From Methanobacteriota archaeon (GTDB lineage Archaea; Thermoplasmatota; Poseidoniia; Poseidoniales; Poseidoniaceae), in assembly GCA_014240385.1 (NCBI GenBank), contig JAAZXA010000068.1:29090-93089 (forward strand): a stretch of DNA of 64,000 bases. The letters are read 5' to 3'. Shown piece by piece: positions 37,448-59,156 of this stretch (position 1 is the stretch's first letter; every line of letters starts with the position of its first letter). The notes under the pieces were generated by a model. That model was not told the origin of the DNA and searched no databases. It saw only the letters and a list, made by a program, of their open reading frames with translations. The position numbers and the translations under genes were made by a program.

Positions 37448-37497
37448 AATTCAAAACAAAACGCCCAACCGCATTGTCGCGGTTGGGCTTTTTGAAT
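37448..37497. terminator. 10-bp GC-rich hairpin with T-rich tails on both strands
   Basis: GCCCAACCGC (37463-37472) pairs with GCGGTTGGGC (37479-37488); plus-sense tail TTTTTG, minus-sense tail GTTTTGTTTTG. Confidence 0.65.
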
Positions 37498-37782: not shown

Positions 37783-37788
37783 AAAGGT

Positions 37789-38067: not shown

Positions 38068-38082
38068 GAGCGGTTTGCTTTG

Positions 38083-38128
38083 GAACGGGAGCCCCGCTCA
38101 ATATCCGCAGATATTGGGCGGGGCGTTC
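38083..38128. promoter_or_regulatory. 14-bp-arm inverted repeat inside an operon
   Basis: CCCCGCTCAATATC (38092-38105) / GATATTGGGCGGGG (38110-38123), one mismatch, flanked by GAACG/CGTTC. Confidence 0.6.
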
Positions 38129-38144
38129 TAGATTTTGAACTCGT

Positions 38145-39071: not shown

Positions 39072-39095
39072 GAGCGGTTGATAGTTGAGTTAAAC

Positions 39096-39422
39096 TCAAC
39101 GGTATGCACCATACTTCAAACCGGGGATTGGGTGGTTTCCGGCTCCACGACGCCTCATTGTGGCAATCATGGAATGAAGGACTTGGTTCGCACGGAACGC
39201 AAGTTCATTTGGTCCCTTTGAAGGATCCAAATTTCCTTTGAAGTCGAATGCACCTGCTTCTTGAATGTCTGTCTCGCATAGGAGGCAGAGCCATTCAGGA
39301 GCTTTTCCAATTGTTAGCACCTTGCGGTGTCCAACAGAGGAGAACTCCTCGCTGTTCAGGTTGCAGTTGCATATAGCGCATGTTCTTGTTATCAATTTCT
39401 GCTTCGTTTGTGTTTGTAGCAT
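39096..39422 (-). CDS. zinc-finger protein (108 aa)
   Basis: track ORF; CAICNCN...CLLCE; start context CACACCACACATG (no exact PM). Confidence 0.65.
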   Translation of the reverse strand: MLQTQTKQKLITRTCAICNCNLNSEEFSSVGHRKVLTIGKAPEWLCLLCETDIQEAGAFDFKGNLDPSKGPNELAFRANQVLHSMIATMRRRGAGNHPIPGLKYGAYR

Positions 39423-39821
39423 GTGTGGTGTGTGCGGTTTGGGTTCTGGCAGAGCATTACCTTCACCTACTACGGTCTCGATTCTCCCTTGTTTCTCAAA
39501 TCCTAACCGGAAAGTCCGGTAGTCGGGTAGGTTAAATCCACCTATGATGGTGAATTAGTCCTCTTAATTGAGAATCGGCCTGCGTGGAACTCTGCTTCCT
39601 CTACGGCCATGGGGGAGTCGGCTCTAAGCAACATCAAGTCAAAGTAAGCATCCCCGATGGATTGCTCCATCTTCGTCTGCTTAGATCATGCTATGATATC
39701 GTTCGTAGCGACGCTTTGACTTGAATCGGCTTCGAGCTATCGATTCAGTAGTTGGTGGCCTCTACCACTGCTCGCTATCCGTTAAGGATGAGCATGTGGT
39801 TTTGGCCGTTATACGAGCGGT
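39423..39821 (-). ncRNA. non-coding region F (about 400 nt, structured, unassigned)
   Basis: follows the stop of 39841..40305; opens with AACCGCTCGTA (39815-39821 core); several local hairpins, e.g. ACCGGAAAGTCCGGT; no credible ORF. Confidence 0.3.
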
Positions 39822-39840
39822 TGCGTAAACATTGGCAATC

Positions 39841-40305
39841 TCATTGAGCGACCTGCCGCTTTCGTCTTGCTAAAGGAACTGGTGTTCTTTTGGGCTTGAC
39901 GGTTTTAGCGGCAGGTTGTACTCGGCTTCTGGACGCCTGATTAAACAGGTTAGTCGCAGATGATGTTCTTGCCTTATTCTTCTGCCCCTTGAACTGGGAT
40001 TTCTTGGCATGTGGCTTTGACGCCTTTGCCTTGACAGTTTTCATGTGCTTTCTCCAAGCCTTGATGTGATTATCATAGATTGGATCTGCGAAAACTGCTT
40101 CTGGCACATACCGAGAGACCATACTTCCGATTCGATTCCAGCCACCAAAACTCAATGAATCATTCATTGCGTTTTTGATTTTGGAAACATAGGATGCTGG
40201 AGCATTCTTATTCAGTTTGCTCCAGTGTTCGGAACCCATCTTGGTAACCCAAGTTGGGATGTAGAGTTCTTGCGGGGTTTCGATGTTCTTATTTTGCATA
40301 TTCAT
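39841..40305 (-). CDS. hypothetical protein with Lys/Arg-rich C-terminal tail (154 aa)
   Basis: track ORF; start follows the 88-nt repeat copy B. Confidence 0.7.
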   Translation of the reverse strand: MNMQNKNIETPQELYIPTWVTKMGSEHWSKLNKNAPASYVSKIKNAMNDSLSFGGWNRIGSMVSRYVPEAVFADPIYDNHIKAWRKHMKTVKAKASKPHAKKSQFKGQKNKARTSSATNLFNQASRSRVQPAAKTVKPKRTPVPLARRKRQVAQ

Positions 40306-40390
40306 GGGGGGTTATCGTTATGTCCATCTCGAATCATGGCTCCATTGCCGACCTCTAATAGGCGGAGCGGGATTTTTTTCGGTAGTGTTG
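40303..40390 (-). repeat. 87/88-nt promoter/leader-like repeat, copy B
   Basis: near-identical to 37696-37782; ends at the start codon of 39841..40305. Confidence 0.85.
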
Positions 40391-40400
40391 ATGGGAGAAT

Positions 40401-40778
40401 TTAGTCCTCAGCGATTGTGGGATCTTGAAGCGAATCATTTGCTTCTGCTGTTCCCTTTGCTGGGGACAGAACTTTGGACTCATTGAAGGTCCAACCTAAT
40501 TCCATCATCATGGATAGAATCCATTCAGGTGCTTGACTCCAGTTGCCATGGAACTTGATGTTGCACATGTTGGCGAATTCAATTATCTCGCTTTCTAATG
40601 TGCTTTGTGTTTTGCCATGGGTTGCTGCTGTCGCTGCAATTGCCTGATTAATGGATGCTCCAGATGCTTCTACTTCGAGCAATACTGTGTCCCAAAGGGT
40701 CATCATTGCTGAGTATAGGCTCAGGTATATTCGTTCTGCCATCGTGCTTGTTTGCTTGCTAACTTGTGTGTGTTGCAT
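40401..40778 (-). CDS. hypothetical protein (125 aa)
   Basis: track ORF; start context ACCCCACATG preceded by hairpin GGAAGAC-AAA-GTCTTCC and repeat module copy 1. Confidence 0.7.
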   Translation of the reverse strand: MQHTQVSKQTSTMAERIYLSLYSAMMTLWDTVLLEVEASGASINQAIAATAATHGKTQSTLESEIIEFANMCNIKFHGNWSQAPEWILSMMMELGWTFNESKVLSPAKGTAEANDSLQDPTIAED

Positions 40779-40800
40779 GTGGGGTATGGGAAGACTTTGT

Positions 40801-40841
40801 CTTCCTCATTAGCATAGGTCATAGGGGCCGTAGGCCCTGAC
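40801..40841 (-). repeat. 41-nt promoter-like module, copy 1
   Basis: CTTCCTCATTAGCATAGGTCATAGGGGCCGTAGGCCCTGAC; contains the GGGCC-GTA-GGCCC hairpin and, in minus sense, CCCTATGACC. Confidence 0.8.
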
Positions 40842-41034
40842 CGTTTTAGTCATGTTTTGGTGCTAAGTTTTATTCTACCTCTCGATAGAAACGGCGCAAA
40901 GCAACCTTTGGACTCCTCCCGTAAAGGGTGGTGTGTGTGGTGTTACGGGTGTCCATGGGTCTCTCTCGCCAATAAAGCGAGTTGTAGGCGTACTCCAACG
41001 CCTCGTTGTTCGTCAATGATTTGACTACACCTCA

Positions 41035-41168
41035 TGGTGGACCGTGCTGGATTCGAACCAGCGGCCTCCTAAGACAGACAACTTCGACTCCTTCCGTCCT
41101 GCCCGGGACAGTTCGGTTTTTGTCTTATTCTGTTTCTTAGGCGCTCTTCCTGACTGAGCTAACGGCCC
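41035..41168 (-). tRNA. tRNA-like gene with a 57-nt insertion in the anticodon loop and encoded CCA; identity unresolved
   Basis: reverse complement folds as GGGCCGT/TA/GCTC-AGTCAGGAA-GAGC/G/CCTAA-[64 nt]-TTAGG/AGGCC/GCTGG-TTCGAAT-CCAGC/ACGGTCC/A/CCA. Confidence 0.75.
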
Positions 41169-41193
41169 GTAACGGTGTTTTGAGGAAGTATTT

Positions 41194-41234
41194 CTTCCTC
41201 ATTGGTATAGGTCATAGGGGCCGTAGGCCCTGAC
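41194..41234 (-). repeat. 41-nt promoter-like module, copy 2 (upstream of the tRNA)
   Basis: CTTCCTCATTGGTATAGGTCATAGGGGCCGTAGGCCCTGAC; 3 mismatches to copy 1; followed in minus sense by hairpin GAGGAAG-AAATA-CTTCCTC. Confidence 0.8.
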
Positions 41235-41376
41235 CCATTTGTGTGTGGTTTTTGTGTGTTTGTGAGCGGTTTAGCCTGATTTCCAATCCATACTGACGAA
41301 CTTCCTCGTAAACCAATTCTGGCCTTTCGGCACTCTCGGTTTGCGTAAGAGAGCGAGATCGTTCCCCGTGAGGGGC

Positions 41377-41646
41377 TTAGATCTTCGTAGCTCGCCTTCT
41401 GTTCACCTGGAACCATTGCTGGTACAGGTGCTCTCCAATAACTACTGCTGCAGGGTCGAGCATCGGGTTTCCGCTTGCTAGTGGACGGTCAAAAGACCAA
41501 TCCATGTGCTTACGGTGTTGCCGATATTGCTGTCGCCTGTAACTCAAATAGGGGTGTCCTTCACCGTCAAAGCGGTGTCGGTAACGATATTTTCTTATTT
41601 TTCCCCTCTTCCCAGCATTGGAAATCGTTTGTTGGCTAATTTGCAT
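41377..41646 (-). CDS. possible very basic protein (89 aa)
   Basis: track ORF only; Arg/Tyr/Gln-rich; no PM or SD seen. Confidence 0.4.
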   Translation of the reverse strand: MQISQQTISNAGKRGKIRKYRYRHRFDGEGHPYLSYRRQQYRQHRKHMDWSFDRPLASGNPMLDPAAVVIGEHLYQQWFQVNRRRATKI

Positions 41647-42097: not shown

Positions 42098-42563
42098 GTG
42101 TGGTATAATTTCTTCGTGGTTTTAGGCCACAGGAGGTATATGAATAGGCCCTTTTACTCTCTTTCCTTTGGATCTAGAGGCCTCAAGCTGCTACTCTTGG
42201 CCTCTTTCTCTAGAAAGAGTGTATTTTGGGTATTTCTTCATGTTCTCCACTGTATTGTGCCACAGGGGGTATATGAATAGGCCACTTGCAGTCAATTTCA
42301 AGATCGCTGAAAGGGCATGATTAGCTTCTCATGCCTTCGCTTTCAATTATTGCTTCAATATGGGTATTTCTTCATGTTCTCCACTGTATTGTGCCACAGG
42401 GGGTATATGAATAGGCCATATTTCGGTAACATCTCCAGATCTCTCCTTCGAAAGCTACTCCTGGCATGGCCGTAGGCCAAACAGGGTGAAATATGGGTAT
42501 TTCTTCATGTTCTCCACTGTATTGTGCCACAGGTGTTATTTGGCAAGGCCGTTTCCGTTAACC
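42098..42563 (+). promoter_or_regulatory. four tandem promoter-like repeats at about 133-bp phasing; the last drives the TFB-like gene
   Basis: TGGGTATTTCTTCATGTTCTCCACTGTATTGTGCCACAGGGGGTATATGAATAGGCC at 42227 and 42360; degenerate copy at 42098; copy at 42493 ends GGTGTTATTTGGCAAGGCC, 28 nt before ATG 42564. Confidence 0.75.
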
Positions 42564-43694
42564 ATGGCGAGTAATGACGATACGGCCAATCAGATGGGGG
42601 CGACTGCTGATTTTTCGTCAATATCGTCTGTCCTTTGTCCTGCATTCGAACAGCCGCCTGGGTGTGCCGTCTCCCTTGCCAAGCAACAAAACTTTGATTC
42701 TTTGTCAGTCGACTCTATGACTGGGAGGGCGTATTGCGGATCATGCGGCGTGGAATTCGTTGTTGACCGTTATCAGGTTAGTCATGAGCAGAAAAAGAGT
42801 GATGATGGGATAGAAACCTACGGATCTGTTCTCTCCAAGTCTGGGAAGCAACGGAATAGGGAACAATCCTTTGACCGCCTGGGCTATCTTTGTATTAGCA
42901 AGTTGGACTTATCTCAAAGTGTGTTGGCACAAGCTACCCGCTACCTGTACGATATGATGGAAGGTGGAGCCGCTAAAGGAGGTCGGGGTTTTCCCCAACT
43001 CGAAGTGGTTGCGGCTTATGTGGCAGGTAGAATGCATAATCAATCCCTTACTCTCGAACATGTTGTTAATATCCATCGAGATTGGATTACAGAAGAAGGG
43101 GAGTTCAAATCGATAAAGGCGGCATCTATGAAATCAGTTAATCGATTGCTGCAGAATATGACTAGGGAAAACATTCTGCCTTACCCCCGCCCTTCTGCAG
43201 ATGATATCATTGGTTCTAATTCGTGGTGCTTGGCTAATCTAGATGAAGTCATTATTCAGAATGCTAAGGAGTTGTCTAATTGCGGAGTCCAAGGTTCCCC
43301 CGATTCTATTGCTGCAGCATCGGTGATGGTGGCTGCGAAGAATAAGCGTGTTGTGAAACCCGGAGATGACTTATCGCGGCCACGAACACAAATGGCCGGA
43401 GAGGAAGATGGGCAGCGTTTAACGCTCGAAGTGATTGCCAAATTGTTTCCTGGCACTACTGCTAGAACTGTAAGGCGAAGAATGAAAGAGATTAGGGATG
43501 TTTTGGAACTTAGGCTACCTCTAACACGAGAGCAAGTAGAGGTTCTTGAAAATCCTGATCCCCGCAAGGTGCGTGTCCGTAATACTGTTGAGGAAGTATT
43601 CAGTCAATTGGATTCGGAATTGGAAGGAAAGATACCATTGACTTCTAAGGATGTAGCAATTCTACGAAAATTGAAAGATTCAAACAAGAGGTAA
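42564..43694 (+). CDS. TFB/TFIIB-like transcription factor (376 aa)
   Basis: track ORF 42486..43694 trimmed to MASNDD. N-terminal Cys pairs (CPAF..GC, CGSCG). Two cyclin-like repeats: RGFPQLEVVAAYVAGRMHNQSLTLEHV and GSPDSIAAASVMVAA...LTLEVIAKLFPGTTARTVRRRMKEI. Confidence 0.7.
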   Translation: MASNDDTANQMGATADFSSISSVLCPAFEQPPGCAVSLAKQQNFDSLSVDSMTGRAYCGSCGVEFVVDRYQVSHEQKKSDDGIETYGSVLSKSGKQRNREQSFDRLGYLCISKLDLSQSVLAQATRYLYDMMEGGAAKGGRGFPQLEVVAAYVAGRMHNQSLTLEHVVNIHRDWITEEGEFKSIKAASMKSVNRLLQNMTRENILPYPRPSADDIIGSNSWCLANLDEVIIQNAKELSNCGVQGSPDSIAAASVMVAAKNKRVVKPGDDLSRPRTQMAGEEDGQRLTLEVIAKLFPGTTARTVRRRMKEIRDVLELRLPLTREQVEVLENPDPRKVRVRNTVEEVFSQLDSELEGKIPLTSKDVAILRKLKDSNKR

Positions 43695-44428: not shown

Positions 44429-44635
44429 ATGAAAGCAGAAGATCCTCTAGTGCAAACCTTACTCAAGACCCTGATGGAGTTAGAAAAGGTGGATGAAAAA
44501 GACTTGAGACACATGATTGAAGTTGCTGGACAACTATGTACCCAACTCGAGCGGCCGGAGAGTATTGCGGCCTTGATGTTTCAGGTGATGGATGTTTCCA
44601 AAGCGGTTGATTCCTCGATTACTGGTTATGCCTGA
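44429..44635 (+). CDS. hypothetical protein (68 aa)
   Basis: track ORF; TTTATGCACC box begins 31 nt upstream of the ATG (leaderless-type spacing). Confidence 0.6.
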   Translation: MKAEDPLVQTLLKTLMELEKVDEKDLRHMIEVAGQLCTQLERPESIAALMFQVMDVSKAVDSSITGYA

Positions 44636-44639
44636 ATCC

Positions 44640-44654
44640 TTCATACGACTGAAC
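44640..44654 (+). promoter_or_regulatory. promoter-like box P1 TTCATACGACTGAAC
   Basis: ATACGACTGAAC begins exactly 27 nt before ATG 44670. Confidence 0.6.
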
Positions 44655-44669
44655 ACCTTCGGCTCTCAC

Positions 44670-47111
44670 ATGAGAGTAGGTTTTCTCCTGTTAGGCAACG
44701 CCCCGTTTTACTTGACTGGGTATGGTACGCAATTGAAAATTCTAGGCGACAAATTAATTGAAGAGGGTTACCCTGTAGGTCATGTTGTTGACTTTGGATA
44801 TGCTGGACAACATATGGAATGGGAAGGGCGAACTGTTTACCCCCATGATAAGTTGCCAGGAACTCTGACTGCTGATACAATGAAATCGCACATCCTGTCT
44901 TTTCAACATAAACACGGTTTAGATCAAGTCGTTGTTTGGTCTTTGGGTGATACATGGAAATTGAGTAAGTTGAATCAAGCCATCAAGCACCCGTATTGGA
45001 TTTGCATGACTCCTGTTGATTCGGATAGGATGGATGGCGGTTCAATTACCGCTCACAATAATTCATGGTTGCAAGCCGCAATATCGAAACATGGTGTTGA
45101 AATTATGAGGGCTGCTGGATTAACTGGCATCAATTACCTCCCCCACATGGTCGGAGATTCCTTTGTGCCAATAAATCAAGAGTATGCTAGAGCCGCATGT
45201 GGTTTGCCTCAAGATCCCTTTGTCGTTGGTTTCTTTGGAGACATGAGTATGCGTAAATGCCCTCATGAGAATCTAGAGGCTTTTGCAATTTTCAAGCAGT
45301 CCGTACCGAACTCCCTCCTCTTCATCAAGACTAGTAACCATGTCCAACAGGTTCAATTCCATGAATTAATTCATAGGCTGGGTTTGCAGAATTCGGTTAT
45401 CACAATTCCCCCCTATGATTCCCTTCTAGGGCTAACGGATTATGAGATGGCACGAGCCCTCTCCAGTTTGGATGTGCTTCTTCATGTGAGTTCCCAAGAG
45501 GGTTTTGGAATCATACAAGTTGAAGCCCAAATGTGCGGAGTACCTGTTATCAACATGGATTTTGGTTCCCAAAGAGAGCTTCAAGGAAATCCCGAACTGT
45601 TGGTTCCTGTGGAACAGATGAATCGTGTTGATGGTGGAATGAAGGTTCCATTTGCGGCACCTGAGAAGATAGCGGAGAAGTTGATGTCTGTTTACAACCA
45701 TCTCAATAAAGTCAGCAGTCTTTCCGATGGTTTTATCGTCAAAAGGGCAATCGAACATGCAGAAACATACAGGGTTGATAAGGTGTGGGACGAGTATTAC
45801 AAGCCATTCCTCAAAGGGATGATTGGATCTATTGATGCGGTTTCTAGAGTTGTTATTCCCCCCCGTTCATTGAAGAAGGTGGGCATTGTTTCTACATTCG
45901 ATACTGAATGTGGAATTGCTACTTACACCCACATGCTTGCTACAAAATTGGTAGAGCAGGGAATGGAAGTTGTTGTCTTTTCGGAAACAGACGGTGAGTT
46001 TGAAGAAGTTCTTGAACATGAAGGTATTCGGCACCATCGATGTTGGAATCGAATGAATCCAAACACCAAATTATTCCGTGAACTTGTTGAGAGGGAGGGT
46101 TGCGATATTATCCACTTCCAGCACGAATGGCAGTTGTTCAAGAGTACGGGGTTGATTGAGGAACTTCGAGATGTACAAGTTAAGAAAGCCATCACATATC
46201 ATACCCCTCAGCCCGACCAAATGCGTAAATTGCTAAGGATTACTGATTCAACCGTTGATGCCCACATAACGCACTGGCCGGAGACTACCCAGTTGTTGCC
46301 AATGGTTTGTGAACATGGGATGTTGAATGGTGTCCAAACCATCAAACATGGTGTCCTTGAGCATTCACTTGTCCAGGACAAGTCTGTTCTGGGCATTCCT
46401 GAAAAGGTTCCAGTATTCTTCACCTTTGGTTTTGCTTCTTCAAGCAAGGGGTTGGATTATTTCATTGATGCGGCCATCCAAGCTTCTAAGAATCCAAATT
46501 GCCGGTACTTCGAAGTTGTAATTGCAATGTCCTATCATCCCGATTGGGATATGAGCGACTTGGCGAAGGAGATTAGAGCGAAGGCTGGTTCTGTTGATTT
46601 CATTACGCTTATTGAAGGATGGATGGATGATGATTCACTTGATGTTCATGCGGCTGCTAGTGACTACCTTGTTTTCCCCTACCGTTGGTACCAACAGATC
46701 CATAGTGCGTCTGGCGCAGTTAGACGCGTTTTGGGTCATGGTAAGCCCGTCTTGGTTACAGATGAGGGAAGGCTTCGAGATTTGACTGGAGGCGTACACG
46801 GTTGGAAGTTCGGCCAATACGATGTAGATGGCTTCGCTGCTGCTATTGTTGATGCGTCTTCATTACTTGGCAGTCCTCGGTATCAAAAGATGGCCCAAGC
46901 GGTCAAGGATTACTCTTCTTTGACCTCGTGGGATAATATTGCTGCGCAACACATTCAACTTTACGATAAGGTCTGTGGCTTGTGGTCGGTGGTTCCAGAG
47001 GGTATGTCACGAGCCCAAAGAGTTGAGATTGATTTACCATTCCCAGAATTACTTGATTCGGATGTTCAAGTGGATCGTTGGCATTTGCATAGGGGTGACG
47101 AAGAAGAATGA
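44670..47111 (+). CDS. large two-domain glycosyltransferase (GT-B, GT4-like; 813 aa)
   Basis: track ORF 44592..47111 trimmed to MRVGFLLLG; VSSQEGFGIIQVEAQMCGVPVI E-x7-E region; second Rossmann-like half begins KVGIVSTFDTECGIATY. Confidence 0.8.
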   Translation: MRVGFLLLGNAPFYLTGYGTQLKILGDKLIEEGYPVGHVVDFGYAGQHMEWEGRTVYPHDKLPGTLTADTMKSHILSFQHKHGLDQVVVWSLGDTWKLSKLNQAIKHPYWICMTPVDSDRMDGGSITAHNNSWLQAAISKHGVEIMRAAGLTGINYLPHMVGDSFVPINQEYARAACGLPQDPFVVGFFGDMSMRKCPHENLEAFAIFKQSVPNSLLFIKTSNHVQQVQFHELIHRLGLQNSVITIPPYDSLLGLTDYEMARALSSLDVLLHVSSQEGFGIIQVEAQMCGVPVINMDFGSQRELQGNPELLVPVEQMNRVDGGMKVPFAAPEKIAEKLMSVYNHLNKVSSLSDGFIVKRAIEHAETYRVDKVWDEYYKPFLKGMIGSIDAVSRVVIPPRSLKKVGIVSTFDTECGIATYTHMLATKLVEQGMEVVVFSETDGEFEEVLEHEGIRHHRCWNRMNPNTKLFRELVEREGCDIIHFQHEWQLFKSTGLIEELRDVQVKKAITYHTPQPDQMRKLLRITDSTVDAHITHWPETTQLLPMVCEHGMLNGVQTIKHGVLEHSLVQDKSVLGIPEKVPVFFTFGFASSSKGLDYFIDAAIQASKNPNCRYFEVVIAMSYHPDWDMSDLAKEIRAKAGSVDFITLIEGWMDDDSLDVHAAASDYLVFPYRWYQQIHSASGAVRRVLGHGKPVLVTDEGRLRDLTGGVHGWKFGQYDVDGFAAAIVDASSLLGSPRYQKMAQAVKDYSSLTSWDNIAAQHIQLYDKVCGLWSVVPEGMSRAQRVEIDLPFPELLDSDVQVDRWHLHRGDEEE

Positions 47112-47418: not shown

Positions 47419-48177
47419 ATGTTATCCGTAATCTGTTGTACTGCCCGTCAAGAGGCAGGTATCAAAGAGATGTTGAAGAGTTTGGAAAAGCAGACGCATA
47501 CTGATTTCGAGTTTGTTTTGGTTGATAAGGCATGGGAATCTCGCAACGGGGCTTTCATCCTGATGCTGGATAATTCGTCGGTTAATTGCAAATACATCAA
47601 AGACGAATCCAAACATGGATTTGTTTCGATTGCCTCTGCTCGGAACCTAGCAGTTGAGTCCTCCGATGGAGATTGGATCGTTTCAGTTGATGATAGGACG
47701 CTGTTCTACCCCGATACCTTGGAACTACATGCGCAAGCATTTGAGGAAGGTTGGGATGGTATGGCGGGTTTTTCTGATTTCCACCACGAAGGCGTTTTTG
47801 CTGAGAAAGAACCAGACAAAGAGGATGAGAGGGGAGATAACCCCCAGTCAGGACATGGGAAATATGCATCAAGTAATTTCTTTGGCTATCACATGGGGTT
47901 CTCGAAGAAGGCTTGGGCTAAGGTCCGGGGTTTCGATGAGAACTATGATGGTGTTTACGGGTGGGAAGATTGTGATTTTGGTTTGAGGCTCGGTAATGCG
48001 GGAGCGGTTGTGAAATTGGGAACCCAATGTCGTGTGCTGCAGATTCGAGACGCTGCACATGGCGAGGTTTTCCAGAAGGATGATGCGCCACATGCAATTA
48101 CTGGAGGTCACATCAGATGGCGTAATGACCGAATGTATAGGCTCACATTAATGAACAGGGGCAGGTGCAGGTGGTAA
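47419..48177 (+). CDS. family-2-like glycosyltransferase (252 aa)
   Basis: track ORF; LSVICCTARQEAGIKEMLKSLEKQTHTDFEFVLVD N-terminal GT-A pattern, VSVDD acidic motif; GAGGAGGAAG SD. Confidence 0.7.
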   Translation: MLSVICCTARQEAGIKEMLKSLEKQTHTDFEFVLVDKAWESRNGAFILMLDNSSVNCKYIKDESKHGFVSIASARNLAVESSDGDWIVSVDDRTLFYPDTLELHAQAFEEGWDGMAGFSDFHHEGVFAEKEPDKEDERGDNPQSGHGKYASSNFFGYHMGFSKKAWAKVRGFDENYDGVYGWEDCDFGLRLGNAGAVVKLGTQCRVLQIRDAAHGEVFQKDDAPHAITGGHIRWRNDRMYRLTLMNRGRCRW

Positions 48178-48178: not shown

Positions 48179-48313
48179 ATGAAAACAAATGGACGCAGAT
48201 ATCGCAGATTAATGGCGGCTTGGAAGAAGAATAGAAGAGGGCGTTCGAAGCCTGTAGCTTCTAAGCGTCAAGGCCGTCCGGTAAGCAAGAAGAGAACCCC
48301 TCGGAGGAGATGA
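48179..48313 (+). CDS. highly basic micro-protein (44 aa)
   Basis: MKTNGRRYRRLMAAWKKNRRGRSKPVASKRQGRPVSKKRTPRRR fills the gap between neighbouring genes exactly. Confidence 0.45.
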   Translation: MKTNGRRYRRLMAAWKKNRRGRSKPVASKRQGRPVSKKRTPRRR

Positions 48314-48314: not shown

Positions 48315-48950
48315 ATGGTTGATGGTCTTCTGCAGCATGATGAATATTCTGATGTTTGTCCAATCTGCAAGGAAATTGTCACCGAAGAAGAATGGCCTGT
48401 GCCGATTTCGAGAATGGAAGAACGGACAGGGCAGAAGTTTCCCCCTTGCGTAGTATGTGGTTCTGATGAAGACATCCATTACAATTACCTGACTATGCCT
48501 CAGAAGGATGGAAGAGGATTCAATCACAATCTTTTGCTGTGGTGCGAATCCTGCGGAAGTGGTACGCAACATGATGGGTTTGATGTATTGACAGGTAAGC
48601 CCAAGATCGCCCTGCGATTACCGAATGAGTTTTCCAATGATTCGATGGAGAAGGCGAAGGAACGGCTTGAAGCGGCTTTGGCCGCAGGTGAACAGGATGA
48701 AGAACTCGCCCAGGAGATCCAAGCAATGTTAGTCATGCGTGGTTTTTTCCGAGTCCACCATTACCCTTGCTTAGATGATGGTTGGGATGCGATGGGGCAT
48801 GGAGTCCGACCACTAGAAAGAAACGAGATTATGAAGAGGTTCTATGAATGGTCTAATGATGAGGCCATAGGTGTGGCCGAACTGTCTGACAATCCTTTGA
48901 CGAAGAATAAATCTCCTAGGACTCGAAAGCGTGGGAAGCGTTGGTGGTAA
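48315..48950 (+). CDS. multi-zinc-finger protein (211 aa)
   Basis: track ORF; GGAGGAG SD; CPICKE, CVVCGS, CESCGS. Confidence 0.7.
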   Translation: MVDGLLQHDEYSDVCPICKEIVTEEEWPVPISRMEERTGQKFPPCVVCGSDEDIHYNYLTMPQKDGRGFNHNLLLWCESCGSGTQHDGFDVLTGKPKIALRLPNEFSNDSMEKAKERLEAALAAGEQDEELAQEIQAMLVMRGFFRVHHYPCLDDGWDAMGHGVRPLERNEIMKRFYEWSNDEAIGVAELSDNPLTKNKSPRTRKRGKRWW

Positions 48951-48958: not shown

Positions 48959-48973
48959 TTATATGACTGAACC
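48959..48973 (+). promoter_or_regulatory. promoter-like box P2 TTATATGACTGAACC
   Basis: ATATGACTGAAC begins exactly 27 nt before ATG 48988. Confidence 0.6.
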
Positions 48974-49189: not shown

Positions 49190-49729
49190 ATGCTCAGCCA
49201 ACCGCATTCTGCTGTAAATCACATGAATTACAGTATTCTTGGTTCACATACTGTTCAAGATGCGGCCAATAATGCGAAGAATAATTTCTCTCCTTCGCAG
49301 AGATCTAGACATGCTCGAACCGCATATCAGAATAATCATCAGAATCTAATGCAACCGGCTATTGCTAACAATCCTCATCTTGCAGATGTTTTGAGAGGTT
49401 CTCAAGATCCAATGGGCGCCTCTTGGAATACTGGCGCTTTTCTCATCGCCGCAGGCGTGGGTGGGTTATTGTCGGTGGTGTCGTCGTCGAAGGACTTGAA
49501 GAGTTTTGGGAAATCGAAGAAGACACAAAGGAGAAACATTACCATTGGTACTATGATTGCTGCTTGTGGGCTGCTTGCAGTTGGATATTCGAAGAATTCT
49601 GAATTAATTCCCGCAGGTATCGGACTTCTTTCTGGCAATGTGGTTGGCAACAACTTGTGGTCTATCGGCTCCCGCGATTCTGGATTCGACTTTACGCCTT
49701 CGAAGTCCCTATTTGAGTTGGACTACTAG
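49190..49729 (+). CDS. membrane protein (179 aa; start uncertain, alternative ATG 49223)
   Basis: track ORF; TM segments GAFLIAAGVGGLLSVV and IGTMIAACGLLAVG. Confidence 0.65.
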   Translation: MLSQPHSAVNHMNYSILGSHTVQDAANNAKNNFSPSQRSRHARTAYQNNHQNLMQPAIANNPHLADVLRGSQDPMGASWNTGAFLIAAGVGGLLSVVSSSKDLKSFGKSKKTQRRNITIGTMIAACGLLAVGYSKNSELIPAGIGLLSGNVVGNNLWSIGSRDSGFDFTPSKSLFELDY

Positions 49730-49739
49730 ATGGGAATGG

Positions 49740-49754
49740 TTCAAACGGCTGAAC
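49740..49754 (+). promoter_or_regulatory. promoter-like box P3 TTCAAACGGCTGAAC
   Basis: AAACGGCTGAAC begins exactly 27 nt before ATG 49770. Confidence 0.6.
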
Positions 49755-49769
49755 CGGCTGGCATTGTCT

Positions 49770-50195
49770 ATGTCGGCAGAAGATGACTCGCACACATTAC
49801 GCATCTTTGGGTTACTTTTCGTAAACTCATTTCTGATTGGTGCGGCAGTTGGGATCCACCAGCAGGGGCTTTGGTTCCCTGAAGAAAGTAATTGGGCTAA
49901 GATTGCAGGCCTCTATATGATGAGTGCTACATTTATTCAAATGGTTGCATTTATGATTTACAAATTGTTCTTCCAGGAGCGACTTGAAGATCAATCGTAT
50001 ATTCAAGGGCTTCATTCCTCTATGCGTCGTAGTATGAAGAAAATTAATGCGGAGACTCAACAATTCCAAGTGGGTCTCGAATTGGAAGCTAAGAGAGCCC
50101 AACAGCAGAAGCAGATGCAATTGCTACGAAATAAGGTCATGGAAGATGATGATGAGTCTGGCCTTAGCGAGAAGATGATGATTGAACTTCGGTGA
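49770..50195 (+). CDS. membrane protein with C-terminal coiled coil (141 aa)
   Basis: track ORF 49638..50195 trimmed to the ATG set by box P3; TM segments LLFVNSFLIGAAVGI and LYMMSATFIQMVAFMIY. Confidence 0.65.
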   Translation: MSAEDDSHTLRIFGLLFVNSFLIGAAVGIHQQGLWFPEESNWAKIAGLYMMSATFIQMVAFMIYKLFFQERLEDQSYIQGLHSSMRRSMKKINAETQQFQVGLELEAKRAQQQKQMQLLRNKVMEDDDESGLSEKMMIELR

Positions 50196-50204
50196 GGCTA
50201 CCTT

Positions 50205-50414
50205 ATGCGAGGGCTTCTTTTTCCAAGTGAATCTGCTCATCAAGCAGAGATAATGGCTGAGGCTTTTGCCAATAAATCGATATGGGACATGCGATGGTAC
50301 AAATTCAAACTTTGGTTCTACACTAGCGTAACTGCTTTCATCTTCATGTTCTTTACATCCCTTATTGAATGGTTCTTTGATTTCAGTCTTTTCAAGTGGA
50401 TGTTCGGGCTGTAG
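50205..50414 (+). CDS. small membrane protein (69 aa)
   Basis: track ORF; GGTGAGG SD; TM segment FYTSVTAFIFMFFTSLIEWFF. Confidence 0.65.
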   Translation: MRGLLFPSESAHQAEIMAEAFANKSIWDMRWYKFKLWFYTSVTAFIFMFFTSLIEWFFDFSLFKWMFGL

Positions 50415-50416
50415 GT

Positions 50417-50431
50417 TTCATACGGCTGAAC
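50417..50431 (+). promoter_or_regulatory. promoter-like box P4 TTCATACGGCTGAAC
   Basis: ATACGGCTGAAC begins exactly 27 nt before ATG 50447. Confidence 0.6.
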
Positions 50432-50446
50432 CGTCTCACATTGTCC

Positions 50447-51211
50447 ATGACGCTAAGCGGATTCATTGCAATGCCTCGAAAACCGGGGAAAACAAAGATT
50501 GGGCAGATCCTCAAGAATATTGGATTCAAGGATAAGGGAGCAGCAGGAAATATGTGGGTCTTTGGTAAGACTCGGTTCCGTGTAGATGTGGTTGATTTTA
50601 GGGATGATTTGAGAGATCATGACGCTGAATGGGTTGAAGAAGTTGGATGGGATGATAATTGGGCCGTCCGTATTGCTGTCAATCATTCTAACAGAACAGA
50701 TGAAAATTACATCTTGTGGCATTCGATTCTAGTCATAGCCGCTGAGTGCTTAGGCGTTAGAGAAATTTGGTTAGATGGCGGCACAGGCATTCCACAGCAA
50801 CCGTACACACTTCGAGAGTTGTTTCCTGAATTGAAATCTGATGAAGGAGAAGACTTGATTGAAGAATCCGAAGCCGCCCCTGTTCTAGTCGACAAGGCAG
50901 AAGTCTTGGAGCTTCCAGATATTGAAACACCTGCTGAGCCTGTTTTGGTTCCATCTGAGCCTGAGCCTGAGCCTGAGCCTGAACCTGTGCCTGAGCCTCA
51001 AACAGAATCGTCCGAAGAGGATTACGATTCCTGGGGATGGGATGAGGATGAGGATGAGGATGAGGATGAGGATGAGGATGAGGACGATTCATGGAATGAG
51101 GATGAGGATGAGGATGAGGATGAGGATGAGGACGAGGATGAATCCGAAGAAGAGAATGAATCCGAAGAGAATGAATCCGAAGAAGGTGTTGATGTAATCA
51201 CTGAATGGTGA
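50447..51211 (+). CDS. protein with (EP)n and (DE)n low-complexity C-terminal half (254 aa)
   Basis: track ORF 50396..51211 trimmed to the ATG set by box P4. Confidence 0.7.
   Translation: MTLSGFIAMPRKPGKTKIGQILKNIGFKDKGAAGNMWVFGKTRFRVDVVDFRDDLRDHDAEWVEEVGWDDNWAVRIAVNHSNRTDENYILWHSILVIAAECLGVREIWLDGGTGIPQQPYTLRELFPELKSDEGEDLIEESEAAPVLVDKAEVLELPDIETPAEPVLVPSEPEPEPEPEPVPEPQTESSEEDYDSWGWDEDEDEDEDEDEDEDDSWNEDEDEDEDEDEDEDESEEENESEENESEEGVDVITEW
50957..50998 (+). repeat. hexanucleotide tandem repeat (GAGCCT)x7, imperfect
   Basis: read directly; encodes EPEPEPEPEPVPEP. Confidence 0.9.
51041..51142 (+). repeat. two runs of (GATGAG)n hexanucleotide repeat
   Basis: 51041-51085 and 51096-51142; encode DEDEDE... 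tracts. Confidence 0.9.
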
Positions 51212-51948
51212 GTTCTTTGGTTGAAGGGGGTGCAATGGCGTGGGGAGGCCTCCTTTACCTCAAGCACCTTTGGGATTCTTGGAAAAGTCACCGAATAGGA
51301 ATATATGGCCTGTGGGCGTGTGGTAAGACCACCCTGAATCGTTATTTGAATACCTCTGGGGATCTCGAAGAAGATACTGCCCGTATGACTAGCACCGCTC
51401 ACCCCTATGATAAGAAGAAGAAGCAGTATGTTCCACCAAATGCAACCCGCAAGAGAATTCATGTTTTGTCCGAAGCAAATCAGTCATTCCGTAGAACCAT
51501 TCTCTCGTCTGATATTGGAGGCCAGTCCGAATATTTCAATCTCTGGGTTCGAGATTTGGTGTTGCGTGATGTTGAAGTAATCATCTATCTGGTTGATTCA
51601 AGGGATGATCCAGATGGGCTTCAAGAGGCAACATTTCGAGACTTTACGAGAATTATTGCCGAGAGAGATTTCCGTTTTACTGAACGAAAATTGAGGAAAA
51701 AGGCCAGAAATTATCAGCCGAAGGTGGTAGCCCTTGTTGCCAATAAATCGGACCTTTGGCTCAATCCAGACGAACGGGCGTATTACGAGGGGTCTGGCAT
51801 TGGCAGGCATCCAATTTTTGATGCTTACAGGCCGCACTTGGTACGGCTACAGAGAGCCGGTATTCCTACTTTGAAGCGAAGTATTTCAGCCCTCCATGGG
51901 TATGATGTGGAGCGATTAATATGGGATTGCTTGAAGGCGAAGTCGTGA
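51205..51948 (+). CDS. Arf/Arl/Sar-like small GTPase (247 aa; alternative start ATG 51235)
   Basis: G1 GLWACGKTT, G3 DIGGQSEYFNLW...IIYLVDSRD, G4 ANKSD, G5 SAL; hydrophobic N-terminal helix MAWGGLLYLKHLWDSW, as in Arf. Confidence 0.75.
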   Translation: MVSSLVEGGAMAWGGLLYLKHLWDSWKSHRIGIYGLWACGKTTLNRYLNTSGDLEEDTARMTSTAHPYDKKKKQYVPPNATRKRIHVLSEANQSFRRTILSSDIGGQSEYFNLWVRDLVLRDVEVIIYLVDSRDDPDGLQEATFRDFTRIIAERDFRFTERKLRKKARNYQPKVVALVANKSDLWLNPDERAYYEGSGIGRHPIFDAYRPHLVRLQRAGIPTLKRSISALHGYDVERLIWDCLKAKS

Positions 51949-51959
51949 TATGACTAAAC
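51945..51959 (+). promoter_or_regulatory. promoter-like box P5 GTGATATGACTAAAC
   Basis: ATATGACTAAAC begins exactly 27 nt before ATG 51975. Confidence 0.55.
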
Positions 51960-51974
51960 CACTTGGCAACTACC

Positions 51975-52748
51975 ATGTCGATGTTTGGCGATGAGGCTTC
52001 GAGTGGTCTGGAGGATTCTCATTTTATGTCGAATGTGAGGTTCACCTTCGATGACAATCCGGATCCATACAAACGAAGAAAGATAAATATGAAAAACGCG
52101 TATGGCGTTTTGAAACCAAAGCGTAGATGGAGGATTGGTTCCCCCGTCCATAACAATGCAGGACAATGTTGTGTTACTGGTATTGATTTGAGGGCTTTGG
52201 GTGCTGAAGCTTACAACAGGGCTTTACTTGACCCGCATACCCTGCAGCCTGTGGATGATGGTCGAACATTGATGACTGAGTTCTTTCTAGATCATTTGAC
52301 GGGCAAACCAGTTCAGTTTGCGGCTCAATCTGGAGTTACTACTGGTTTGCCGCTTCGTTCGTCTTATTGTCCAGGATTATTGCAGATTTATTGGTTGTAT
52401 ACTCAATGGAAATATGAAACCGATATGGAAGAACAGGGTAGGAATAGTTCATTCCTTAGAAGTAGAGGTATTGAATTAAAGCCTTTGAGAAGAAAGGATG
52501 TCAAAAAGCGCAATAGACCCTTGTTAGTCGATGAAATTGAGCCTTTTTTTGCTAAGGTCAAAATGCATGAAGGGCAGGGCATAACCATTGTTGAGTATTC
52601 TAATCCTGATGAAAATTCTAACTTCTTCGGAGAGATTGATTTAGTACACATAACATTGGATTTGCGGAAGATGCGAAGCGAGGAATTAAATAGGGAAAAG
52701 ACAAAGGGGGGCAACCCCTCCGATAATCAAAGCGAGGTTATACCATGA
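51975..52748 (+). CDS. hypothetical protein (257 aa)
   Basis: track ORF 51963..52748 (TTG) trimmed to the ATG set by box P5. Confidence 0.7.
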   Translation: MSMFGDEASSGLEDSHFMSNVRFTFDDNPDPYKRRKINMKNAYGVLKPKRRWRIGSPVHNNAGQCCVTGIDLRALGAEAYNRALLDPHTLQPVDDGRTLMTEFFLDHLTGKPVQFAAQSGVTTGLPLRSSYCPGLLQIYWLYTQWKYETDMEEQGRNSSFLRSRGIELKPLRRKDVKKRNRPLLVDEIEPFFAKVKMHEGQGITIVEYSNPDENSNFFGEIDLVHITLDLRKMRSEELNREKTKGGNPSDNQSEVIP

Positions 52749-53449
52749 GCTTCTACAATCCAAACCCCACACCACAAAATACGAACGCTAATGTCGGTAA
52801 TCCGTTCTCTAAGGCACCTCCAGTGCCAACTGGAGCACCAATGGGTATGCAGGGTATGCAGCCAATGGGACAACAAAACCCCTATGGTATGTATCAACCA
52901 ACGCCACAGGCTTTGTGGGCTCAACTTGGTTATCAAACCGAGCCCTCTTTGGTTGAACTCATTCGAGATTTAGTTGTACAGAATTCTTTGGATTCTGCGC
53001 GATTCGCCGTTGAGGGGGGTTTCTTCGCTGATATTGCAATTATGGAGCAACTGATTGATTATCGCTTGAAGGAGTTCTTCACCAATTTCCGATTAGAAAT
53101 ACACCAAGACGCTACGCAAGAAGGTGCTATGTTCATCAAACCTGCTCCAGAGCAGCCTACGGATGAAGGAAAGAGATTGGCAACCCTCACCCAAAGTGAT
53201 TTGACTGCGAAGGTTGAGGAAATCAAGGGTGCAATTCGAGATAATCTATTGCAGACTGCGGATCAGAAAATTGAGTTGCATATCCAGGCGTCTGCTTTGG
53301 CTACGCAACAAGGATTCATGGGCTCTCTTCTAGCAGAGGACGCTAATGGGCAAAGAGGCGGCATTCTTTCTGCTACTGCAGGAGTTGCAGGAGGCATTCT
53401 AAGATCTGCTGCAGGTCTTCCACCTGCGCCAAAACCACCGGGGGCTTGA
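52745..53449 (+). CDS. hypothetical protein with Q/P/M/N-rich N-terminus (234 aa)
   Basis: track ORF; GAGGT SD; ATGA overlap with the upstream stop. Confidence 0.7.
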   Translation: MSFYNPNPTPQNTNANVGNPFSKAPPVPTGAPMGMQGMQPMGQQNPYGMYQPTPQALWAQLGYQTEPSLVELIRDLVVQNSLDSARFAVEGGFFADIAIMEQLIDYRLKEFFTNFRLEIHQDATQEGAMFIKPAPEQPTDEGKRLATLTQSDLTAKVEEIKGAIRDNLLQTADQKIELHIQASALATQQGFMGSLLAEDANGQRGGILSATAGVAGGILRSAAGLPPAPKPPGA

Positions 53450-53453
53450 TTAA

Positions 53454-53753
53454 ATGAGTGTTGAAAGAGTTGATGAATTGCTAACAGAGATGGCGTCCGG
53501 TTCGAAGTCAAGAAAGAAAGAAATAGATGTTTATTCGATTATGGATGATTGGTTTCAACCTAAATCAGAATTGATGAAGCATGTGATTATTATTCAAATG
53601 ATTGCTTGTATTATCGTATCGATGTTCCTTTTGATTACTGTCGGAGATTCTCTGAGTAGTGAGGGCTTGCTCTTTGCAGTCATGGCTTTCATGTTGTTTG
53701 TTGGCGGATCCTTCCAATTTTACAATCGAATGACGGGTGGAGGGAGATACTGA
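53454..53753 (+). CDS. membrane protein (99 aa, 2 TM)
   Basis: track ORF; VIIIQMIACIIVSMFLLITV and LLFAVMAFMLFVGG. Confidence 0.65.
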   Translation: MSVERVDELLTEMASGSKSRKKEIDVYSIMDDWFQPKSELMKHVIIIQMIACIIVSMFLLITVGDSLSSEGLLFAVMAFMLFVGGSFQFYNRMTGGGRY

Positions 53754-53914
53754 TGCCTTCGGCTAACCATCCTGCATTGTTGATTCCCAAGGTTGCACCA
53801 GTAGCACCTATGAGCCTTTCACTATACTACCTCTACAAACGACCATCAGATTGGAAGGTTGCAGTATCTACGCTGATATTTTCATCGGCCTTGTTGGTTG
53901 CAGGTCTAAGGTGA
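53753..53914 (+). CDS. small membrane protein (53 aa), below track cutoff
   Basis: GGAGGGAGA SD; TGATG overlap; MPSANHPALLIPKVAPVAPMSLSLYYLY...STLIFSSALLVAGLR. Confidence 0.5.
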   Translation: MPSANHPALLIPKVAPVAPMSLSLYYLYKRPSDWKVAVSTLIFSSALLVAGLR

Positions 53915-55200: not shown

Positions 55201-55297
55201 ATGAAAGTGAAAGTGTTGAATATGAATTGAGCCCCGGCGATACTGAGGGTATATGAACTATGCATAGTGGAAGAATTTCCTTGCGGCAGTAATGAAG

Positions 55298-55371
55298 CGG
55301 CCCCACGGGGATTTGAACCCCGGTTACTGGTTCCGCAAACCAGTGTGATATCCAAGCTACACTATGGGGCC
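55298..55371 (-). tRNA. tRNA-Arg (anticodon GCG), no encoded CCA
   Basis: GGCCCCA/TA/GTGT..TCAC/A/CTGGT-TTGCGGA-ACCAG/TAAC/CGGGG-TTCAAAT-CCCCG/TGGGGCC/G. Confidence 0.85.
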
Positions 55372-57563: not shown

Positions 57564-58385
57564 CTACTCTTCCTCAGTCGCTTGATTGTTTTGGAAAGGA
57601 ATGGTTATTTCAGGTTCGGCCACAAGGGTTGGATGTATGCCTTCTACTACCTCTCCATCAACATCCATCATGCCATAGATGTACAAATTCTTTTTCTCGA
57701 GAATGTTCTTGATTGTCTGTCTGTGCCAGACCACCTTTCCCTTCCTTGTTTTGATGGCTTTTGTTGCTAGTTCATTGATTATGTCGGATATTGTGTAGCC
57801 TTGAGTTTCCATATTGAAGATTATGTTTACTACGCTTGCTTCTTCTTCGTTTGGTACAAGCAAACCTTTCTTGGATCTCTTTCCTGTATCATCGATTTCA
57901 ATATTCATGTCATACCCATAGGGGGGTGTTCCAAGCCAAATTCCTTTCAACTTTGCACCTGCCATGCCCATTTTGACTCTTTCTTTGATTTCATTTCGCC
58001 TTAGTTCAGCCAATGCTGCGAATACTATGTAGAAGAAGCGGCCTTGAACCGTTGTAGTGTCCATTTGTTCAGAGATACATGCAATATGGCAGTTGTTTGT
58101 ATCAATTGTGTTTACAAATTCAATTGCGTTCATGGTGTTGCGATGAAACCGGTCTAGTTTGTAACCAACTACTGCGTCCCATTCTTCGCCCATGGTTTCC
58201 ATCATCGCACCATATCCAGGCCTGTTGTCTGTGAATCCACCTGATCCTGTATCTGAGTAGCTTCGAATGTAAGTCCAACCTTGCATTTCGATGTAGTTCT
58301 GGCAAAGCCTCAACTGTTCCTCTAGGCTGTGGCCTTTTGCTTCTTGCTTCTCGGTTGAAACTCTTGTGTAGATTATTGCTCGCAT
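57564..58385 (-). CDS. serine recombinase (resolvase/invertase catalytic domain plus C-terminal extension)
   Basis: MRAIIYTRVSTEKQ...GHSLEEQ...YSDTGSGG...RPGY; canonical N-terminal Ser-recombinase motifs. Confidence 0.85.
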   Translation of the reverse strand: MRAIIYTRVSTEKQEAKGHSLEEQLRLCQNYIEMQGWTYIRSYSDTGSGGFTDNRPGYGAMMETMGEEWDAVVGYKLDRFHRNTMNAIEFVNTIDTNNCHIACISEQMDTTTVQGRFFYIVFAALAELRRNEIKERVKMGMAGAKLKGIWLGTPPYGYDMNIEIDDTGKRSKKGLLVPNEEEASVVNIIFNMETQGYTISDIINELATKAIKTRKGKVVWHRQTIKNILEKKNLYIYGMMDVDGEVVEGIHPTLVAEPEITIPFQNNQATEEE

Positions 58386-58703: not shown

Positions 58704-59082
58704 GGTTCGTTCACCATAACCTTGGTTAATTGTCGCTATGAAGGGTCAGTCGTATTACACCTTCGCCCTGTGAACCGAATTATCACCCGTTTAACACGCT
58801 ATTCCCCCCCACATAGGGGGTATGTTGACGATGAAGGAGTTCCTTTGCGCTCAACCCCCCCACCTTCATAGTCAAAAACGGGTATTTTTCACCTCATAAC
58901 TTCTCATTGAATCGCAAGTCCTCACATCACATCTCAATTGTAAGGTTGGGGTGGAATGAACCTCATGTGGTTCTGCGCTTCTAACCTTCGTTCACAGGCA
59001 ATTCCAATTCCTATCTACACATTAGGGGTGAATTACCTACTTCGTGCAACAAGGGATCTAGATGAAACAATAGGAAACAAGG

Positions 59083-59156
59083 CGGGTCATGCAGGGTTCG
59101 AACCTGCGGCCTACTGGTTAAGAGCCAGTCGCTCTACCTGACTAAGCTAATGACCC
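59083..59156 (-). tRNA. tRNA-Lys (anticodon CUU)
   Basis: GGGTCAT/TA/GCTT-AGTCAGGTA-GAGC/G/ACTGG-CTCTTAA-CCAGT/AGGCC/GCAGG-TTCGAAC-CCTGC/ATGACCC/G. Confidence 0.9.

Follow-up and report, generated by a model that had tools for sequence, protein, structure and literature searches.

An Arf/Sar/SRbeta-like small GTPase in a conserved six-gene cassette of a virus-like archaeal element

Introduction

Small GTPases are already known from giant viruses, and Arf genes have been described in an integrated mobile-like region of Atabeyarchaeia, which belong to the Asgard archaea (PMC11529989). The Asgard GTPase ArfR (PDB 8OUK, 8OUN) binds membranes through its N-terminal helix (10.1101/2024.02.28.582541). 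In Haloferax, the small GTPase ArvA is required for the formation of extracellular vesicles, and an ArvA homolog has been found in plasmid vesicles (PMC10927574). Here we analyze an Arf/Sar/SRbeta-like small GTPase encoded on a 64,000-nucleotide stretch of archaeal DNA (contig JAAZXA010000068.1 of assembly GCA_014240385.1, positions 29,090 to 93,089 of the forward strand; hereafter the window), which we interpret as part of a viral or virus-like element. The gene lies at 51205..51948 on the plus strand and is the third of six core genes of a conserved cassette that also encodes three small membrane proteins and two soluble proteins. An earlier note, made from the DNA letters alone, had pointed to it as an Arf-like GTPase embedded among viral membrane proteins. 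Coordinates refer to the window unless another contig is named, and genes are designated by their first position.

By analogy with Arf/Sar1, Asgard ArfR and haloarchaeal ArvA, we propose a GTP-switched, membrane-docking GTPase that stands at the center of the six-gene cassette and serves membrane remodeling in an element of Marine Group II (MGII) archaea, a proposal to which we give an even chance of being correct. It bears on the exit of viruses, tailed ones especially, from non-thermoproteotal archaeal cells: tailed archaeal viruses have no known egress machinery, and the players are 'completely uncharacterized' in non-thermoproteotal archaeal viruses (PMC10791045). It also bears on the nature and spread of capsid-less 'group D' magroviruses in the very abundant archaea of the surface ocean (PMC5434244, PMC10160649) and on the reach of membrane shaping by the 'GTP switch plus amphipathic helix' of Arf/Sar proteins outside Asgard archaea and eukaryotes. 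The cassette is compact and contains an enzymatic handle, making it testable by heterologous expression, which is relevant since the host is uncultured. No mention of a GTPase was found in the magrovirus literature searched, and we believe that an ancient Arf-like family confined to viruses, accompanied by conserved membrane proteins of its own and carried by elements of globally abundant non-Asgard archaea, is new.

Results

The GTPase gene encodes a 247 amino acid (aa) protein with a complete set of G motifs. G1 reads GLWACGKTT (residues 35-43). The G3 region, SSDIGGQSEYFNLWVRD...VEVIIYLVDSRD (residues 101-134), contains the stretch DIGGQ...LW...IIYLVDSRD (residues 103-134), in which G3 itself, D103-G106, is followed by Q107 and further on by W114. 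G4 is NKSD (residues 180-183) and G5 is SAL (residues 228-230). The N-terminus reads MAWGGLLYLKHLWDSW. All motifs listed in the earlier note, as well as the N-terminal segment, are present in the translated sequence, and the start of the gene indeed overlaps the end of a gene for an acidic (EP)n/(DE)n protein (50447..51211), by 7 nucleotides (nt). An alternative start at M11 (51235), with GGGGGTG resembling a Shine-Dalgarno (SD) sequence upstream, was chosen by the gene caller on an identical metagenomic contig. GxxxxGKTT, DxGG, NKxD, SAL and W114 are invariant in a 27-sequence alignment of the family, and the catalytic position is occupied by glutamine, the Arf state, in 11 sequences and by histidine, the Sar1/SRbeta state, in 16. 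W114 forms part of the LW motif and lies 11 residues past the G3 aspartate (D103-IGGQSEYFNL-W114), a spacing that we take to equal that between D67 and W78 of Arf1. Compared with Arf, the protein contains three insertions at approximately residues 50-80, 155-172 (a basic helix, RKLRKKARN) and 184-221. The AlphaFold2 (AF2) model shows a six-stranded G-domain topology. With its motifs intact, the product is likely a functional small GTPase.

Profile searches support an Arf/Sar/SRbeta-like rather than a Ras-, Rab- or Rho-like affinity for the viral GTPase. In the comparison with profile hidden Markov models (HMMs) that the earlier note had suggested, Arf (PF00025) is the sole Pfam family exceeding its curated cut-off for the window GTPase, by a small margin (E = 1.6e-5, 24.9 bits against a cut-off of 22.3). 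The same Pfam family is matched by 16 of the 27 family members at E <= 0.01; Ras, Rab and Roc are matched by none (0/27). A narrow profile of the family (A1) searched against all PDB sequences returned 8oun (Asgard ArfR), Arl8, SRbeta, RagA and Arl1. A wider profile (A3), which takes in a distant viral lineage described below as well as remote relatives, returned 8oun (4e-9), Arl3 (2e-7), Arl1 (1e-6), Sar1 (4e-6) and Arf1 (8e-5); its top 60 PDB sequence matches are free of Ras, Rab, Rho and Ran. The small GTPases returned by the family profiles from PDB sequences are thus of the Arf clade only, and the best match is full-length Asgard ArfR with an alignment that takes in the N-terminal helix region. 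Two remote full-length relatives, P0083 and P0101, match Pfam Arf (about 1e-9) and SRPRB (8e-7). The profiles bear out the earlier note's reading of Arf rather than Ras signatures; the tryptophan of WDxGGQ is missing. We name the GTPase Arf/Sar/SRbeta-like instead of an Arf member because it is a long-branch outlier, carries three insertions, lacks both this tryptophan and Gly2 and has an ambiguous switch-I threonine. Strict membership in the Arf family is not established.

An aromatic amphipathic helix is predicted at the N-terminus of the GTPase (approximately residues 11-27; helix 4-26 in the AF2 prediction). For this segment, the hydrophobic moment amounts to 0.29-0.40 and the mean hydrophobicity to 0.13-0.44, a range into which the helices of Arf1, Sar1 and Arl8 presumably also fall, and A12, G14, W23 and W26 are invariant in the 27-sequence alignment. 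With KD19 values that reach at most 1.17 among close viral family members and 1.34 across the distant lineage, the segment is too polar for a transmembrane (TM) helix; the window GTPase itself scores 1.16, which is under 1.6. As a predicted amphipathic helix, the N-terminus of the viral GTPase may possess membrane-binding potential.

The GTPase could instead be an SRbeta-like docking receptor that only recruits or targets viral proteins, for example for TM insertion, leaving the membrane without remodeling. SRbeta ranks among the best sequence and structure matches of the viral GTPase, the catalytic histidine found in most family members (16/27) is that of SRbeta, two remote relatives possess a true N-terminal TM anchor, and one source labels a family member 'signal recognition particle receptor subunit beta'. 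However, Pfam SRPRB (PF09439) stays far below its threshold for the window GTPase (12.2 bits, cut-off 25), the viral N-terminal segment is amphipathic and contains no TM anchor, and no SRX/longin-like partner was found, with the model of the soluble cassette protein 51975 showing no known fold. Taken together, we consider a pure docking receptor unlikely.

The GTPase family is found in viral or metagenomic contigs only. We identified 26 homologous clusters of the window GTPase (240-256 aa, 45-86% identity), all from marine metagenomes, and 13 relatives in IMG/VR viral contigs. When 1.84 billion representative proteins were searched with a profile, only 80 matched at E <= 1e-3, and the majority of these are fragments of family members. 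In 185,579 species genomes of bacteria and archaea, a pattern scan, bounded by its search patterns, gave 0 confirmed relatives, a tblastn search of 50,697 phage records gave 0 matches, and a lookup of the exact window GTPase protein in assemblies returned no record. NCBIfam contains nothing for the GTPase, the TFB homolog described below or eight other window proteins, and PHROGs contains nothing for the four proteins of the cassette region scanned (GTPase, 50447, 51975 and 52745). The locus of the remote relative P0101 is cellular, with a bacterial-type context, and adjoins EF-P. Together with the euryarchaeal ArvA (PMC10927574), this locus shows that the earlier note, which saw other homologs as concentrated in the Asgard archaea, took too narrow a view. 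Overall, the viral GTPase family appears virus-specific, ancient and strongly diverged.

The GTPase is encoded in a cassette of six core genes, all on the plus strand, that is conserved in two lineages. TM-length segments were called by a Kyte-Doolittle scan. Core gene 1 (49770..50195) encodes a 141 aa protein of holin-like architecture with TM segments at 12-30 and 45-63 and a charged, Q-rich C-terminal tail, and core gene 2 (50205..50414) a Trp-rich 69 aa protein with a single TM segment at 36-54. The GTPase is core gene 3. Core gene 4 (51975..52748) encodes a soluble protein of 257 aa (ca. 260 in relatives) with invariant motifs including GQCCVTG and PLRSSYCP, a candidate regulator or effector. 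The product of core gene 5 (52745..53449) is 234 aa long. Its N-terminus is Q/P/M/G-rich and probably disordered, which agrees with its earlier description as Q/P/M-rich; the middle part is helical and the C-terminus rich in Gly/Ala. Core gene 6 (53454..53753) encodes a 99 aa protein with a charged N-terminus and TM segments at 44-62 and 71-89.

In close relatives, the gene order is TFB-like protein, GT4-GT4 and GT2 glycosyltransferases, a Zn-ribbon-like protein of ca. 210 aa and small genes, followed by 2-TM protein, 1-TM protein, acidic protein, GTPase, 260 aa protein, Q/P-rich protein and 2-TM protein. Gene order is retained in 19/19 loci having enough flanking sequence. The distant lineage (contigs L013-L018), whose GTPase is 32-35% identical to that of the window, has the order 2-TM protein, 1-TM protein, GTPase, 51975 homolog, Q/P-rich protein and 2-TM protein. 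Using profile HMMs built from the close lineage, 49770 homologs were detected in 6/6 distant loci (E of 4e-19 to 4e-11), each time located just upstream of the GTPase gene, and 51975 homologs likewise in 6/6, always directly downstream of it. Homologs of 53454 are present in 9 close and 6/6 distant loci, those of 50205 in 7 close and 3/6 distant loci, and those of 52745 in 9 close loci and 1/6 distant loci. L014 contains positional analogs of the last two, an 82 aa protein for 50205 and, at 11693..12331, a protein of the same composition and in the same place as 52745.

In the distant lineage the cassette is flanked by an open reading frame (ORF) of 2743-2989 aa on one side and by a helix-turn-helix (HTH) protein and then a T4-type large terminase (TerL) on the other. 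tblastn searches with the giant protein, the terminase and neighboring genes of the distant lineage against the window and its relatives gave 0 matches, and the cassette is therefore the only block shared in the compared regions. Since it alone is common to two otherwise unrelated flanks, we conclude that the six genes form a unit. The membrane partners postulated in the earlier note are thereby borne out, as two 2-TM proteins and one 1-TM protein stay collinear with the GTPase at 32-35% GTPase identity. The five membrane proteins that it had counted around the GTPase all possess TM-length segments, and three of them (49770, 50205 and 53454) belong to the core. The other two are lineage-specific. 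49190..49729 (plus strand) encodes a 179 aa membrane protein in which hydrophobic segments rich in glycine (TM 81-99) follow a Q/N/H-rich N-terminus, with homologs in the closest relatives L001 and L007 only (31% identity). 53753..53914 (plus strand), the last gene of the plus-strand block, encodes a 53 aa protein with one hydrophobic C-terminal segment, for which tblastn gave no homolog elsewhere and a profile search one weak match in L001 (12951..13229). The acidic protein (50447..51211, plus strand; 254 aa with 85 acidic and 18 basic residues), in which a globular N-terminal half precedes a tail of (EP)n/(DE)n repeats, is not a core component either. It is present in 7 close loci and 0 distant loci, and searches of Pfam, PHROG and PADLOC returned nothing for it.

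Just upstream of the module, the plus strand encodes a fused double GT4 glycosyltransferase (44592..47111, 839 aa) and a GT2 glycosyltransferase (47419..48177). Both are located in the same plus-strand block as the cassette and are syntenic in all close relatives, which would fit a role of cassette and glycosyltransferases in envelope modification or superinfection exclusion, altering the host surface or blocking competing viruses. The distant lineage, however, keeps the cassette without adjoining glycosyltransferases, which places these enzymes outside the conserved unit, and no cassette protein matches a PADLOC defense model, making a known defense system unlikely. We therefore give this explanation little credence.

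Several lines of evidence support the assignment of the window to a viral or virus-like archaeal element of roughly 128 kb, in agreement with the viral setting assumed in the earlier note. Besides the GTPase relatives in IMG/VR contigs, the plus strand encodes a genuine TFB/TFIIB homolog (42507..43694), which comprises a Zn-ribbon and two cyclin repeats and is kept in all close relatives. A single-sequence PDB search with this protein returned nothing, and the match emerged only with the family profile (human TFIIB, 1e-15; Pyrococcus TFB, 1e-11). Contigs of 125-130 kb carry the cassette at differing positions, which suggests complete circular or permuted genomes. Two tRNA genes on the minus strand, tRNA-Arg(GCG) at 55297..55371 and tRNA-Lys(CTT) at 59081..59156, recur as the same pair in relatives. 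An exact copy of a 23-nt stretch of the tRNA-Arg anticodon arm is present in 21 of the 185,579 genomes, all of them Poseidoniales or MGII-type archaeal metagenome-assembled genomes, and the whole tRNA-Arg is 69/75 (92%) identical to a Poseidoniales tRNA-Arg with the first 50 nt identical. Because the anticodon arm matches only such genomes among these species, we assign the host, on the basis of sequence comparison, to the Poseidoniales (MGII).

The element putatively resembles the capsid-less 'magrovirus group D'. Members of that group encode a resolvase and RNA polymerase A, lack morphogenetic genes and may be plasmid-like, being enriched in the cellular fraction (PMC5434244, PMC10160649). 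The likeness is based on a serine recombinase in the window (57564..58385), on an archaeal RNA polymerase subunit A'' in a relative and on the absence of a visible capsid gene: no capsid, portal or terminase genes were seen in the 64-kb window or its examined flanks. The RNA polymerase gene, a Rpo1C homolog of 535 aa, is located on the minus strand at 19101..20708 of L022 (contig IMGVR_UViG_3300020446_000001) and matches Sulfolobus A'' with an E-value of 1.4e-8.

The terminase of the distant lineage is closest to those of Bacteroides phages (26.6% identity). A bacterial host was rejected for the window lineage in view of the TFB homology, the RNA polymerase A'' homolog of a relative and the tRNA-Arg match to Poseidoniales.

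The '-27 boxes' described in the earlier note appear to divide the module into transcription units whose first genes are leaderless. In this motif, AWAYGRCTRAACC, the CTRAACC core begins exactly 21 nt before the ATG of 48988, 49770, 50447 and 51975, so that several genes do sit behind such a box. The four copies are located on the plus strand at 48961..48973, at 49743..49755 (AAACGGCTGAACC, with a CTGAACC core), at 50420..50432 (ATACGGCTGAACC) and at 51948..51960 (ATATGACTAAACC), the last overlapping the GTPase stop codon. Lineage-variant boxes are found at equal distance upstream of the orthologs in L001, L003 and L005, and internal genes of each unit carry SD-like GGAGG or GGTGA instead of a box. 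The box is thus a putative archaeal-type promoter; in this archaeal pattern, each unit would open with a leaderless gene, and the genes behind it would be led by SD sites.

A different signal is found in the minus-strand part of the window. The 10-mer ACCGCTCATG has 82 minus-strand and 0 plus-strand copies within 159..39078, where ca. 0.1 would be expected by chance, and directly abuts the ATG of ca. 60 of the 76 called genes of this block. The intergenic spacers consist of just a stop codon and (A/C)ACCGCTC. The homologous block of L022 (ca. 63% protein identity) contains 38 copies in gene orientation, and no copy of the 10-mer occurs in the GTPase module, in the 54-64 kb block or in other lineages. 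The 10-mer is no SD sequence; it may serve re-initiation or processing, or else act as a start signal specific to the virus.

Further features surround the genes described above. The minus-strand block (1..41646) shows a strong AT skew of about -0.2 to -0.29 and contains dozens of genes for proteins of 60-300 aa, most without a database match; those with one include Dam, two N6/N4 DNA methylases and two PAPS-reductase-like proteins. For a 951 aa protein, no relatives were found in IMG/VR. Two genes lie on the plus strand between the GT2 gene and the module: 48179..48313, located between the GT2 and 48315 genes, encodes a 44 aa peptide with 20 Arg/Lys and 0 acidic residues that is 81% identical in L001 and L007, and 48315..48950 encodes a 211 aa Zn-ribbon-like protein with three CxxC pairs and no DUF2072 match. 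Directly upstream of the distant-lineage cassette, the giant ORFs span 43..9012 of L014 (2989 aa) and 881..9112 of L017 (2743 aa); that of L014 contains many CxxC pairs and has no Pfam match. The stretch of L022 near the Rpo1C homolog also contains Mom-like, DUF6011 and DUF3085 genes.

Discussion

The family affinity, the intact motifs, the predicted helix, the co-conservation of the cassette and the host assignment are the ground on which our proposal is built, and from there we infer membrane binding, partner interactions and a biological output. In the GTP state, the aromatic amphipathic N-terminal helix would be released and insert into the cytoplasmic face of the host membrane, as in Arf/Sar1, an insertion that the basic patch RKLRKKAR could aid. 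The membrane-bound GTPase would gather the other five cassette products, namely three small membrane proteins and two soluble partners (51975 and 52745). One of the latter would presumably set the nucleotide state of the GTPase. The resulting assembly could then bend or breach the membrane at a defined time of infection. The likeliest output would be outward vesiculation or egress of the element; in a variant of this mechanism, inward budding would give rise to an assembly compartment.

A number of observations weigh against this proposal. Structure searches leave a narrow margin between Arf-clade and other small GTPases, and Foldseek alone does not tell Arf from Rho or Rab for the viral GTPase. 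Canonical Arfs were not reached at library-wide significance in the profile search of 1.84 billion representatives (E <= 1e-3). The residue preceding the G3 aspartate is serine or threonine (SSDIGGQ, STDLGGH) and not the W/F of WDxGGQ/FDLGGH, and the switch-I threonine is ambiguous, with the invariant T64 and an S/T at position 81 as candidates. The model of 51975 matches no known fold and reveals no recognizable GTPase-activating protein (GAP), guanine nucleotide exchange factor (GEF), longin, roadblock or coat. Pfam, PHROG and PADLOC scans gave no lytic enzyme, cell-wall hydrolase or known holin family. Conserved synteny in viruses can mirror common expression timing and not physical cooperation, and both the mechanism and the partner interactions are read from sequence, predicted structure and synteny alone. 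That the GTPase is an unrelated neighbor, a generic cytosolic P-loop GTPase of translation, ribosome or genome handling that shares only position or timing with the surrounding genes, would accord with the weak secondary matches of some family members to MMR_HSR1, GTP_EFTU and AAA-type models and with cassette partners that are all of unknown function, but is very improbable given an Arf-clade signal that agrees over three independent methods, a strongly conserved amphipathic N-terminal helix and a cassette that is the sole block common to two unrelated genome contexts, which positional inheritance is unlikely to yield.

A more far-reaching version of the membrane-remodeling proposal, which we regard as unlikely, would make the cassette a vesicle-budding machine that is complete in itself, encoded by a virus and at work in a non-Asgard archaeon. 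Here the GTPase would nucleate the assembly, the three small TM proteins would act as cargo or scaffold, and the proline/glutamine-rich partner and the partner of novel fold as regulator or coat. If such a machine exists, 'magrovirus group D' elements without recognizable capsid genes could exit in membrane vesicles, tailed relatives could use the cassette for egress, and the virosphere would have evolved a minimal coat system of its own, with an origin independent of the endomembrane system of eukaryotes.

Phage lysis cassettes are often located near packaging genes. The viral cassette resembles phage holin lysis cassettes in its small TM proteins, one of them a 2-TM protein with a charged C-terminal tail (49770), and in the distant lineage it adjoins packaging genes, namely those of the terminase. 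Unlike such cassettes, it contains no endolysin or known holin family. We know of no described lysis cassette that includes a GTPase, and to our knowledge the host has no murein.

With Arf/Arl/Sar1/ArfR proteins, the viral GTPase shares a small G-domain with all G motifs, Pfam Arf as best curated match, a Q/H catalytic position, LW 11 residues after the G3 aspartate and an N-terminal amphipathic helix. It differs from Arf (ca. 180 aa) in its length of 247 aa, which includes the three insertions, in the S/T-D that precedes GG(Q/H) and in the lack of Gly2. In contrast to Asgard ArfR, the host of the viral GTPase would be an MGII euryarchaeon.

The ArvA/OapA system (arvB, arvC) is similar in comprising an Arf-like GTPase in a non-Asgard archaeal setting and in a small conserved operon. 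By its published description, ArvA also has an N-terminal hydrophobic or amphipathic helix. The partners differ, being small TM proteins and novel soluble proteins in the viral cassette versus ArvB and ArvC for ArvA, and no neighbor of the GTPase shows a Pfam match to DUF2073 (ArvB) or DUF2072 (ArvC), even at E <= 1. ArvA has 1,666 genomic homologs and the viral family 0 confirmed in the pattern scan of 185,579 genomes, which is bounded by its search patterns; this would argue against close membership with ArvA (HVO_3014).

Finally, the Arfs of Atabeyarchaeia and the mimivirus Rab (PDB 5XC5) are, like the viral GTPase, Ras-superfamily GTPases carried by a mobile element or virus. Those proteins were captured recently and group with the Arf or Rab proteins of cells. 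The family carried by the MGII elements appears instead to be old, divergent and virus-exclusive, and it travels with its own membrane proteins.

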